Assembly (NCBI GenBank): GCA_951406725.2
Contig: OX597828.1
Span: 69,316,001-69,380,000 of the forward strand
Length of the DNA: 64,000 nucleotides
Source of the DNA: Octopus vulgaris
Lineage: Eukaryota
Direction of reading: 5' to 3'
The notes below the pieces were generated by a model. It made no database searches and was not told where the DNA came from. It saw only the letters and a list, made by a program, of their open reading frames with translations. Position numbers and translations under genes: made by a program. Shown here piece after piece: positions 32,266 through 45,761 of this stretch; position 1 is the first letter of the stretch; every line of letters starts with the position of its first letter.

Positions 32266-32277
32266 AGTGTAATAAAC
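32266..32277 (-). CDS. Gene B candidate 12-nt microexon: VYYT
   Basis: ctttactttgtcatttcag|GTTTATTACACT|GTAAGTAC; flanks homologous to the three 9-nt microexons. Confidence 0.7.
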
Positions 32278-32439
32278 CTGAAATGACAAAGTAAAGAAGG
32301 AGAGAAATAAAGATATGCAAATGATGATGATAACAACAACAACAATAACAACAATAATAATAATGATAGTAGTAGTAGTAGTAGTAGTAGTAGTAGTAGT
32401 AGTAGTGATAATATTTTAAAAAGGATTGACGTAACTCTT

Positions 32440-34020
32440 CACGAAGATAAACAGTTAAGAGGAAGAGCGCGATTCGATTGTAAAAGATATTTTATTGGTT
32501 GAACGATATTTCGAAAGTAAGTCTGTCTTTGTCAAGTTCAAAATAAGAAGTGATAAGAATTTGAAATTATAGAAATTCAAATGTGAAGTATGAACGAGAG
32601 CAACTCGCGTCCGCACGTTGATGGAATGACATCATCAGTCTTTAAGTTTCACTTTTATAACAAGCGGAAAGAAAAAGATAGAAAAAAAGAAGGAAAAAAA
32701 GAAAAGAAAAAGAATATTTAATCAAACAATTTTGTATAAATTTGATGATATTCTCTTGATATTCTTTCCTCCAGGGCGTGATGTTAATAACCCGCAAACA
32801 TATTCTGAGAATATGCACTTTCAAATCTTTTTCAAAATTGCCGTCGTTTGAAACGAAATGTTCAGCAAGTTCTGTCAAACTACTGTTATTGTGCCTGACA
32901 TCGAATCTGTGCCCATTAAACCTTTTGTTTAATTGTTCTGTTGTACAACCAACATAAATCAAGTTGTGTTCCGTGCATTCTGCCGCGTACACCAAATCTC
33001 TACATGTCCTATCTTCCGTGTAAATCATAACATTTCTGTTATGATTCCTGATGGAATTCACTCACGTTGTTGCACAATGAACAGGGCTTACCTCTCTTGA
33101 AACTGTTTTTCAAGGTACAGCGTGCAGATACTCCAATATTCGTTTTCTTGGAGTCAGAAAGAGAGGTCAATAATTCTCTTTTATTCTTATTCCGTCAATA
33201 GGTAGCCGAGGAAATATCTGTTTGAAACGAGGATATCTTTTTGCCACATGCTAGTAACTTTCATGCAACACTTATGAAATGCCAGTTAATCACAAAAGGA
33301 ATTATGTCATCTATTGTATTCTTCTTTTTCTTGTATTGTGTTTACTAAAATTATGCGTGTAGGTTTGACTGTCTTTGCTAATATTAGCTATTTCATTTTC
33401 TATTTCCTTTAATCGTTATTCACTGTAACCGCGTTTGACATAATGACAAACAAAAGCATTTGCATGTTTCCAGTCAGTACAAATCCGTTTTATCCTAAAA
33501 AATTGGGATTTCGGATTTCACCGAATAAGATGGTGTGGATGATCGGAGCAGCGGGGTAGATAAATGTGGAAAGACGTGGGCTTGCAAAATAACTCTGTCC
33601 CTATTCTGCTTCCAGAAAACTAGACGTAAATTATATGTTGGACTTAAAGCCATAGCTTTTAGTACAACGGTCACAGAATTGCAATTCCATTAAACTATCC
33701 TGTGATCCTCCCCAGATAAAAATACGCCATCAATGAACCGTAACCAGAGTATTGGTTCATGACCATGAAAAGGATTTGAATGTCTTCAGTAGCTGTGTCG
33801 AATTTCGTCATAAAGACATTAGCGAAAGTAAATGCCATGGCGCAACCCTTCGTCTGGTGGTAAAATCTTTGTCTAAACTTCATTGTGTTACTTTGTAACA
33901 CAAATCTCAATAATCTACAGAGAAAATTTGATGGAATAATTTTGGCTGACCGCTTTTCGAAGGCATCCATGCAAGCTTCTACCCCTTCATCGTGGTCAAT
34001 ATTGGGATATAAGGAAGATA
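32440..34020 (-). mobile_element. Decayed Penelope-like retroelement (RT 3' part, GIY-YIG, pLTR)
   Basis: FYHQTKGCAM..FANVFM, WLRFIDG, LFCKPT, LVYAAECTEHNLIYVGCTTEQLNKRFNGHR; many frameshifts. Confidence 0.9.
32499..32541 (-). ncRNA. Hammerhead motif, U3-A8 core variant
   Basis: minus ttgaac-TTGACAA-...-GAAA-ta-TC-gttcaa, downstream of the GIY-YIG ORF; weak stem II. Confidence 0.5.
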
Positions 34021-34480
34021 TTTATTAATACAGACATGTAAATAATTTTTTATTATAAAATAAAATAAAATAAATTATTAGTACATGATAGTAAGTTACG
34101 AAACAATTGTAGTTGAATATGGAAAGCTAAAGGTGAAAAATTTTTACTCAACTTACACTTTCTGTATTTATAATTTATATAAATAAATGTACATTCACAC
34201 ATACACGCACACACGGACACACACACAGACAGACACACACACACACACACACACACACACACACACATACACACACACACACACATATATCGCTACACTC
34301 AGACATATATATTTATGTATGTGTGTATGTATGTTCTTTAGGACAGTCTTATTTTAAAAGTGGATATCAATCGCTGAGAAGAAATAAAGGAGAGTACTTT
34401 CTTCGATATCCTGTTCCTTTTTTTACCTTCTTACCTATCAAATATTGTCCCAGAAATGTGAAAGTAGAGTTTGTACTTAC

Positions 34481-34489
34481 GGTGATTGC
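34481..34489 (-). CDS. Gene B candidate 9-nt microexon: AIT
   Basis: ttttttttatcatttcag|GCAATCACC|GTAAGTAC. Confidence 0.65.
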
Positions 34490-43518: not shown

Positions 43519-43809
43519 AATAATAATAATAATAATAATAATAATAATAATAATAATAATAATAATAATAATAATAATAAATAATAATATAAATAATAAT
43601 AATAATAATAATTATAATAATAATAATAATAATAATAATAATAATATAAATGATAATATAAATGATAATATAAATAATAATAATAATAATAATAATAACA
43701 ACAACAACAACAACAACAACAACAACAACAACAACAATAATAATAATAATAATAATAATGATAATAATAATAATAATAATAATAATAATAATAATAATAA
43801 TAATAATAA

Positions 43810-44880
43810 TTGTTTTGTCTTGGTATAAAAGATGGGCTACAGCAAATATTCTGCTCAATACCACAGATTTGCTTTGTTTTGTCTTGGTATAAAAGATGGG
43901 CTACAGCAAATATTCTGCTCAATACCACAGATTTGCTTGTCAGTTGTTTGACCTTAACCAGTTGAGCATGTCCCTTAGTGGCTGACGATATGTGCATCTC
44001 TGATCACGAGCAGAAGTAGTGGGGGAGCATCATAGCCATGTGTTGAGAGGGATTCTTTGGGGTTTGAATAATTCACCTCTGGAAACATGGGTGGTTCTTT
44101 CAACATCCTTAAACAACCCTTATTCAGGGACCTTTTGAGCGGGATGGGCTACTCAACCTGAAGAAAATTCTAACTGGGCCCCACCTACAAGGTCATGTGC
44201 TGTTTATCTTGATATGAGATCACCATGTCGCGCACATATGGTTGTGATGCATGTGCCTGGTGTACCTTTATCAGACGGGTAGTCATGATGGGTATATTGG
44301 GCTTCGTATATTTTACCCCAGTGTCACTTTGATGGCATGCACTGCTCTCTCACTCAATAATAATAATAATAATAATAATAATAATAATAATAATAATAAT
44401 AATTATAATAATAATAATAATAATAATAATAATAATAATAATAATAATAATAATAATAATAATAATAATAATAATAATAATAATCATGAAGAGATCATGA
44501 AGAAAAAAATGCTTTCTAATTGATGTATCAATACCGGCAGATGACAACGTGTCTCTAAAAGAAATGGAGAAACTCTCAAAATACAAAGACCTGGAAATAG
44601 AGGTAACTAGAATGTGGAATCTGAAAACCGAAACAATTCCTATCATAGTAGGTGCATTAGGCATGATAAAAAAAATTCAGAAAAATACATAACAAAAACA
44701 CCATAACAAACACATATAACATACAGAAAATTGCACTACTAGGCACTGCACACATCATACGCAGAACACTTTCCATACAATAACCATCAGAGCATCACAA
44801 CAAATCACAGCACATACCCAAGGCACACAGAGCTGCGCTCGGTAGTGAAGTGAAAGCACGCTACAAAAATAAAACTACTG
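43810..44880 (+). mobile_element. Duplicated TAA-tailed retroposon (43810-44357) plus Dong 3' fragment (44485-44880)
   Basis: Copies of 38150-38697 and 38821-39216. Confidence 0.85.
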
Positions 44881-45752
44881 AATAATAATAATAATAATAA
44901 TAATAATAATAATAATAATAATAATAATAATAATAATAATAATAATAATAATAATAATAATAATAATAATAATAATGATGATGATAATAAGCACAACTGT
45001 CACAGAAAAGCAAGTCCATTAAACTATCCTGTGATCCTTCCCAGATAAAAATACGTCATCAATGAACCGTAACCAGAGTATTGGTTCATGACGATAAAAG
45101 GGTTCGAATGTCTTTAGTAACTGAGTCGAATTTCGTCATGAAGACATTAGCGAAAGTAACTGCCACGGGGGTACCCATGGCGCAATCATTCGTCTGGTGG
45201 TAAAATCTTTGTTTAAACTTCATTGTGTTACTTTGTTACACAAATCTCAATAATCTACAGAGAAAATTTGATGGAATACTTTTGGCTGACCGCTTTTCGA
45301 AGGCATCCATGCAAGCTTCTACCCCTTCATCGTGGTCAATATTGGGATATAAGGAAGATATTTATTAATACAGACATGTAAATAATTTTTTATTATAAAA
45401 TGAAATAAAATAAATTATTAGTACATGATAGTAAGTTACGAAACAATTGTAGCTGAATATGGAAAGCTAATGGTAAAATAATTTTACTCAACTTACACTT
45501 TCTGTATTTATAATTTATATAAATAAATGTACATTCACACATACACGCACACACACATATATCGCTACACTCAGACATATATATTTATGTATGTGTGTAT
45601 GTATGTTCTTTAGGACAGTCTTATTTTAAAAGTGGATATAAATCGCTGAGAAGAAATAAAGGAGAGTACTTTCTTCGATATCCTGTTCCTTTTTTTACCT
45701 TCTTACGTATCAAATATTGTCCCAGAAATGTGAAAGTAGAGGTTGTACTTAC

Positions 45753-45761
45753 GCTGGTTGC
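45753..45761 (-). CDS. Gene B candidate 9-nt microexon: ATS
   Basis: tttttttatcatttcag|GCAACCAGC|GTAAGTAC. Confidence 0.68.

Follow-up and report, generated by a model that had tools for sequence, protein, structure and literature searches.

We analyzed a 64,000-nt window of the Octopus vulgaris genome (contig OX597828.1, positions 69,316,001 to 69,380,000) whose minus strand carries a gene, here called gene B, with an array of microexons between the exons for the third and fourth transmembrane segments (TM3 and TM4) of its predicted product. With confidence a little above even, we favor the reading that gene B encodes a small four-pass protein, found here only in octopods, whose predicted outer loop is assembled from serial 9-12-nt microexons and varies between versions of the gene, which are likely inherited haplotypes under diversifying selection. 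Of the microexon architecture of gene B alone we are highly confident, and we are confident that the microexons are read in series.

Gene B was modeled with nine minus-strand exons, each a multiple of 3 with AG/GT ends, which together encode 176 residues with no internal stop. Hydropathy identifies four hydrophobic segments in this product, predicting a four-pass membrane protein. The first coding exon (54965-55126, ATG at 55114) encodes TM1 and the first half of TM2 and is identical to the N-terminus of P0001, a hypothetical Octopus vulgaris protein. An exon for the second half of TM2 and the inner loop (53807-53872) and the TM3 exon (49891-49971) follow. Beyond the microexons, the TM4 exon (29469-29579) matches residues 314-353 of the Argonauta protein P0003, and the last coding exon (26274-26357) encodes a Thr-rich tail and the stop; a near-identical tail ends P0003. 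Two RNA contigs, X6 and X10, extend ~60 nt past the first coding exon (55126), implying an upstream non-coding exon that was not located.

The four microexons, named by the residues they encode, are ATS (45753-45761), AMT (40165-40173) and AIT (34481-34489), of 9 nt each, and VYYT (32266-32277), of 12 nt, which lies in an older cassette with 75% identity to the others. They contribute 39 of the 528 coding nt, and the other five exons measure 66-150 nt each. All four cassettes that the original prediction, made from the sequence alone, had placed here were found, each with a tttcag acceptor and a GTAAGTAC donor, and the exon model bears out its proposal that they are in-frame, phase-0 multiples of 3. 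They are the sole matches of the cassette regular expression within the window, and a DNA search with one cassette returned only these four. Across 2.8 Gb, the pattern CATTTCAG-N9..12-GTAAGTACAA has five matches, four in gene B and one in a neighboring paralog, while a reversed-pattern control has none. Because genome-wide matches cluster only here, the four cassettes are not a chance occurrence. A scan of the TM3-TM4 intron gave eight candidates of 3-51 nt, among which only ATS, AMT, AIT and VYYT combine GTAAGTAC donors with the strongest pyrimidine tracts; the gene B microexons have GTAAGT donors and 86% pyrimidine tracts. The public O. vulgaris model takes in ATS and AMT but past them runs into introns and loses the frame. 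Judged from splice signals, AMT, AIT and VYYT are presumably included as well.

Half or more of the TM3 words occur in 20 of the 24 runs listed. Four runs (X3, X6, X10 and X18), from four studies and with three organism labels, were compared with the TM3 exon only; 30 loose letters past TM3 are readable per contig, and contigs drop rare variants. No run is on record as RNA, and spliced status is taken from exon-exon joins. The previous exon is joined exactly to TM3 in all four runs and introns are uncovered save for 31-32-nt repeat pieces; the contigs therefore represent spliced sequence. In all six spliced contigs TM3 continues into three short blocks, and a direct jump from TM3 to TM4, which the original prediction had named as evidence against itself, occurs in none. 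ATS directly follows TM3 in four contigs and a variant of ATS does so in the other two. The X6 and X18 contigs read ATS-AST-ISIG; they run without a break from the previous exon through TM3 and for at least another 81 nt. X3 and X10 share two paths, each unbroken over 132-136 nt: ATS-GTT-VSMG and xSS-GSS-ISIG-A(N/K). Both paths occur in either run, at similar depths within each (467 and 342; 230 and 308). These paths differ in all three blocks and at linked TM3 letters; in the xSS path the first codon is not readable, and TM3, an exon that is single copy in the assembly, shows 2-3 more differences inside it or at its end. Each run thus contains one or two unbroken phased paths only, the phasing expected of haplotypes or paralogs. 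Since all six contigs carry at least three blocks and the versions are phased rather than mixed, we conclude that the microexons are read in series and that the variation is haplotype-like.

Three phased loop versions were observed overall, and after the first block none matches the assembly string ATS-AMT-AIT-VYYT; AMT, AIT and VYYT were not seen in RNA within the 30 letters read per contig. The simplest parse of the RNA letters is 9+9+12, and 9+9+9 is also possible. Block 2 (AST) is probably an allele of AMT/AIT, because it is one base from AIT. The ISIG/VSMG pattern has no match in the window, the neighboring sequence or the genome, even allowing one mismatch. Either the assembly haplotype would lack some of the cassettes present in the RNA, or ISIG would be a deeply divergent counterpart of VYYT, with TM4 starting at A-N. 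By eye, A-N-E-T in Argonauta P0003 resembles the A-N start after ISIG; pairwise BLASTP of P0003 against the TM4 exon gave no alignment, and the A-N-E correspondence comes from another alignment and inspection by eye.

The coding bases of the cassettes appear to change faster than their surroundings. ATS and AMT differ at 3 of 9 coding positions and at 11 of 779 flanking positions (33% versus 1.4%; P 2e-4), while the same coding-versus-flank comparison gives P 0.04 for ATS/AIT. Among the RNA versions, 7 sites vary in 30 loop nt versus 2-3 in 110 TM-exon nt (Fisher P 3e-4 to 8e-4), and P is 0.01 without two A-to-G sites. Diversifying selection on gene B is likely, though not proven. Positive selection is described as concentrating on exposed extracellular surfaces, including pathogen contacts, in the available text of two sources (bioRxiv 10.64898/2026.09.21.753075; PMC10875847).

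The array has apparently grown by duplication, as the original prediction held. The AMT cassette lies in a tandem unit at 39339-44989 and the AIT cassette in one at 33661-39338; alignment of these units, of ~5.7 kb each, shows 36 differences in 4436 positions, with 19 of the differences lying at one end. In a three-way alignment, the AMT unit agrees with AIT at 13 of 14 two-against-one flanking sites up to +579 from the microexon (the discordant site is +537) and with ATS at 21 of 21 such sites from +603. The AMT unit thus carries the signature of a chimaera produced by unequal crossing-over of the ATS and AIT units, between +579 and +603, within a decayed GIY-YIG element. The element, probably Penelope-like, was annotated at 32645-34021 on the minus strand (GIY-YIG E 5e-5); its 5' part follows all three 9-nt cassettes and contains the crossover. 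A reverse-transcriptase retroelement lies between TAA tracts on the plus strand upstream of AMT (40516-43518; RVT_1 E 5e-13 and 1e-12), with a 98-99% identical second copy upstream of AIT (34845-37833, plus strand). The ATS unit lacks this retroelement, and the order of events would be duplication, then retroelement insertion, then a second duplication. Dong elements target TAA repeats (PMC3812793, as far as its accessible text goes), and the comparison with the element here concerns the TAA setting only. Among the ten cassettes in the gene B-paralog cluster, eight have the same type of donor flank, with 16-30 of 30 positions identical, while two differ from it, with 7-14 of 30 identical; one cassette type has therefore multiplied repeatedly.

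The TM3-TM4 loop is predicted to be an outer loop, in keeping with its extracellular placement in the original prediction: charge bias (K+R 25 and D+E 8 on the N-terminal side; 11 and 19 on the loop side) sets it opposite the cytosol. By hydropathy the first outer loop has 4-6 residues and the TM3-TM4 loop 18-29. In a low-confidence model (mf730273aec0c, residues 72-110), the TM3 helix extends through the microexon blocks, where pLDDT is <50; 3-4 residues correspond to about one helical turn, and each cassette might add a turn. Claudin/PMP22 proteins have a long first outer loop with a W-GLW-C-C motif, and were rejected on the 4-6 residues here. Tetraspanins have a large second outer loop with CCG and several cysteines; they were rejected on the loop of 18-29 residues and the lack of cysteine in any microexon. 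MYADM proteins have a tandem double domain, as is predicted for the neighboring paralog A+C. For MS4A/CD20, size, four TM segments, both ends inside and two short outer loops agree with the gene B prediction. CD20 clusters are among the Atlas feature matches at 0.79 and 0.84 and MARVEL at 0.82 (150-153 shared features), all below the 0.9 bar, and neither family has a Pfam match. MS4A/CD20 and MARVEL are thus leads only (CD20 loops are treated in PMC3711070).

We propose that each cassette would act as a frame-neutral module, such that unequal crossing-over between repeated intron pieces could add or remove 3-4 residues; because each cassette is frame-neutral, the protein would not be broken. 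Strong splice sites would give default inclusion, and point changes could then accumulate in exposed codons. Our best guess at function is a polymorphic cell-surface interaction patch. By analogy with other systems, the putative partner would most likely be a pathogen or parasite ligand or a self/non-self counter-receptor, and the gene may have a pathogen or self-recognition role. A more specific version, which we regard as doubtful though possible, is an MHC-like octopod locus for self/non-self or pathogen interaction, with haplotype strings of 3-4-residue microexon modules, unequal crossing-over and deep allelic lineages (VYYT-type versus ISIG/VSMG-type) across the Octopus vulgaris complex.

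Several observations weigh against hypervariable haplotypes under selection. The loop-versus-TM-exon P rises to 0.03 with TM3 limited to the 51 nt covered by variant contigs. The original prediction had coding bases changing in every copy, even between nearly identical units; the faster change of coding bases than of flanks bears this out, but the AMT/AIT pair taken singly is weak evidence of it (P 0.035-0.07). Nonsynonymous changes number 6 of 7, or 10 of 11 with the window copies, which is not above the neutral 75% (P 0.44 and 0.20). Hypervariability is not family-wide, since the paralog loop blocks are as conserved against Argonauta as the TM exons. The difference between ATS-AST-ISIG and the other versions may be one between species, as the runs carry three organism labels, and paralogy could account for the pair of paths in X3 and X10. 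Two of the seven variable sites are A-to-G and could reflect RNA editing, and the comparison draws on contigs of 30 loose letters that omit rare variants. Relaxed constraint would accommodate some of these points: the loop would be a tolerant spacer in which microsatellites and retroelements drive duplication and codons drift. With 53% identity to Argonauta, the protein as a whole is fast-evolving, repeats fill the intron, and the nonsynonymous share fits; yet drift predicts that microexons diverge as introns do, whereas ATS/AMT give 33% versus 1.4%, and splice sites and frame are kept in every cassette. We consider relaxed constraint quite unlikely. A-to-I editing, which is common in coleoids, could make loop variants from one genomic sequence, and ISIG and VSMG do differ by two A-to-G changes. 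However, five of the seven sites are of other kinds, four C/G and one A/T, and a search of the assembly with one mismatch allowed gives no match to ISIG/VSMG, which leaves editing highly improbable.

A different possibility is combinatorial skipping, in which each animal makes many loops from microexon subsets, perhaps by tissue or cell. The original prediction envisaged up to 16 such loops, for which we found no support: none of the six contigs skips within the first three blocks, X6 and X18 are unbroken from the previous exon over TM3 and beyond, and the Argonauta annotation strings five 4-residue blocks together, although rare isoforms may hide. The cassettes all sit in phase 0 with lengths divisible by 3, but this symmetry is equally required to tolerate duplication. 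In favor of skipping, the X3, X6 and X10 contigs end 81-85 nt after TM3, such that something must branch further on. UGC lies between the branch point and AG in 74-79% of SRRM3/4-dependent neural microexons (available text of bioRxiv 10.1101/2024.09.17.613571). In a scan from -35 to -6, it is absent upstream of all four gene B microexons and present in 2 of 10 cluster-wide; the motif is not strictly needed for regulated inclusion, according to the same source. Overall, we find skipping unlikely. The array itself might be overcounted, with the third 9-nt copy an assembly artefact of two haplotypes stacked in tandem and a true array of 9+9+12. We put this at a real if minority chance, and it is compatible with the favored reading. 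With the crossover segment set aside, the units show 17 differences in ~4050 positions, a level alleles could reach; the RNA versions are simplest as 9+9+12; and a graph loop would yield the same chimaeric junction, mimicking the last duplication. Against stacking, there is no N in the window, the junction shares only ~0.6 kb, which would be short for a mis-join if long reads were used, and the retroelement copies break at different places. Finally, gene B could be a chemosensory or ligand-gated tetraspan working like MS4A, which has a chemoreceptor role, with the loop tuning small-molecule specificity. The four TM segments, two short outer loops and CD20 matches agree with this, but those matches fall below the bar, MARVEL scores alike, and the two intact genes (three domains) found in the genome are not a receptor repertoire; such a role is very unlikely.

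Known systems offer partial parallels to haplotypes built from microexon modules. Troponin T has N-terminal microexon arrays, including the avian tandem Tx exons, in which tandem in-frame microexons differ in number between lineages; it is a cytosolic muscle protein with developmental splicing, and we know of no haplotype hypervariability in it. Dscam arrays are mutually exclusive, with tandem exon duplication in an extracellular segment and one exon per transcript, whereas all six gene B contigs carry at least three blocks; the Dscam-type analogy of the original prediction is thereby contradicted. Its other analogy, schistosome micro-exon genes (MEGs), holds for exon anatomy. MEGs share with gene B runs of very small symmetric exons, transposon-rich introns and a fast-changing exposed part. 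Unlike gene B they consist mostly of microexons and seem confined to flatworms; they also bear a signal peptide and vary through skipping, as far as the accessible text states (PMC4350168). In gene B the very small symmetric exons make up 39 of 528 nt, all within one loop of a multi-pass protein, and skipping in the first three blocks was unseen in six contigs, which drop rare variants. Pacific oyster sperm bindin, in the text available, is a single-copy mollusc gene with positive selection, intronic recombination, and a retroelement and microsatellites beside repeated exons (PMC5712786). It differs in repeating whole F-lectin domains whose number is varied by splicing (PMC5712786), while the gene B module is 3-4 residues. 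By analogy, gene B may work most like oyster bindin at a far smaller scale, while being MEG-like in exon anatomy. In clustered hyperdiverse mollusc membrane-protein genes, extracellular diversity is attributed to pathogen-mediated balancing selection, as proposed for gene B; those candidates include single-pass proteins with folded domains, and the portion available mentions no microexon loop. In literature outside most subscription journals and supplements, we found no description of this octopod family (including the accessible parts of PMC11703226 and bioRxiv 10.64898/2026.09.05.749416) and no characterized hypervariable surface locus in cephalopods. Supplementary microexon tables, such as those of bioRxiv 10.64898/2026.09.05.749416, which include O. 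bimaculoides, could list these exons.

Such a gene, a well-expressed but mis-annotated membrane protein with a modular, putatively polymorphic loop, would offer a direct candidate for studies of host-parasite interaction or self-recognition, and one amplicon can type its loop. It would present microexons as germline copy-number units rather than regulated splicing switches. It also illustrates how such genes escape annotation, the public O. vulgaris model reading into introns after the second microexon.

Few relatives of gene B were found. Homologous cassettes, which the original prediction had suggested seeking in a gene A beyond the left window edge, were looked for, and candidates were found in paralog A+C (G000:C15:69290194-69323402, from window position 7402 leftwards; L001-L003). 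This paralog has two tandem tetraspan domains with eight predicted TM segments; its last exon was not located. In the window, on the minus strand, its first coding exon lies at 7235-7402, its second exon at 4846-4911 and its TM3 exon at 2780-2860, with four 12-nt microexon candidates beyond the edge: YFGT, FNDV, VKAA and LYVS (C15:69313080, 69309701, 69305546 and 69304475). The second loop has candidates DFRK and DTDEY (C15:69295160 and 69291920). These six were chosen from 58 raw candidates, mostly microsatellite noise, a choice backed by the Argonauta protein P0002, to which the paralog model is 52.6% identical over 306 positions. The Argonauta loops, with exon boundaries inferred from protein, read YFGT-YNDV-VNNS-IKKD-LYLT and DFAN-KAD-HSDEF and are longer by exactly 4 and 3 residues; against them the paralog loop blocks are 40-100% conserved, versus 41-72% for TM exons. 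Both halves apparently belong to a single 8-TM gene. We rejected a separate gene C, since no terminal exon lies in the 1.1 kb after the TM4 of A, a start codon is missing, and in Argonauta one protein covers both halves. The homologue searches returned no O. vulgaris protein for the paralog. The predicted loop of Argonauta P0003, the gene B relative, contains a 100-residue stretch repeated twice and flanked by VGQS-NYAI and GAQG-NYQA, a hint of independent cassette duplication in the same loop.

A homologue search of 1.84 billion representatives, from which shorter proteins were excluded, gave five matches, octopod proteins only; P0004 was dropped as a repetitive false match. Word-indexed protein searches gave 1, 2 and 1 matches, again only octopod, and a metagenome scan held no relative among 598 pattern matches. 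Pfam searches with P0001, P0002, P0003, P0005 and two single exons gave no family at its curated cut-off, and a PDB sequence search returned 0 matches at E 10. A single-sequence model had pLDDT 49.5, and its fold search returned generic helical bundles (best Z 9.6); these negatives rule out none of the families considered. Only the two intact genes were found in the genome. Seven Mb away, L014 (G000:C15:62060642-62063033, plus strand) is a partial copy of the paralog 3' end; it carries a 12-nt microexon (EFRE) as well as a TM4 exon containing a stop codon, and is likely a pseudogene fragment.

Further repeats were noted in the window. An inverted repeat of ~440 nt, 94% complementary, occupies 5153-5591 and 6579-7009 in the first intron of the paralog. 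Copies of one dispersed short repeat, presumably a SINE, lie at 31268-31509, 47135-47860, 56070-56661 and 57759-57998, and are in tandem at 56120-56606. Upstream of gene B, at 60300-61550 on the minus strand, a decayed coding-like stretch resembles by eye another non-LTR retroelement.

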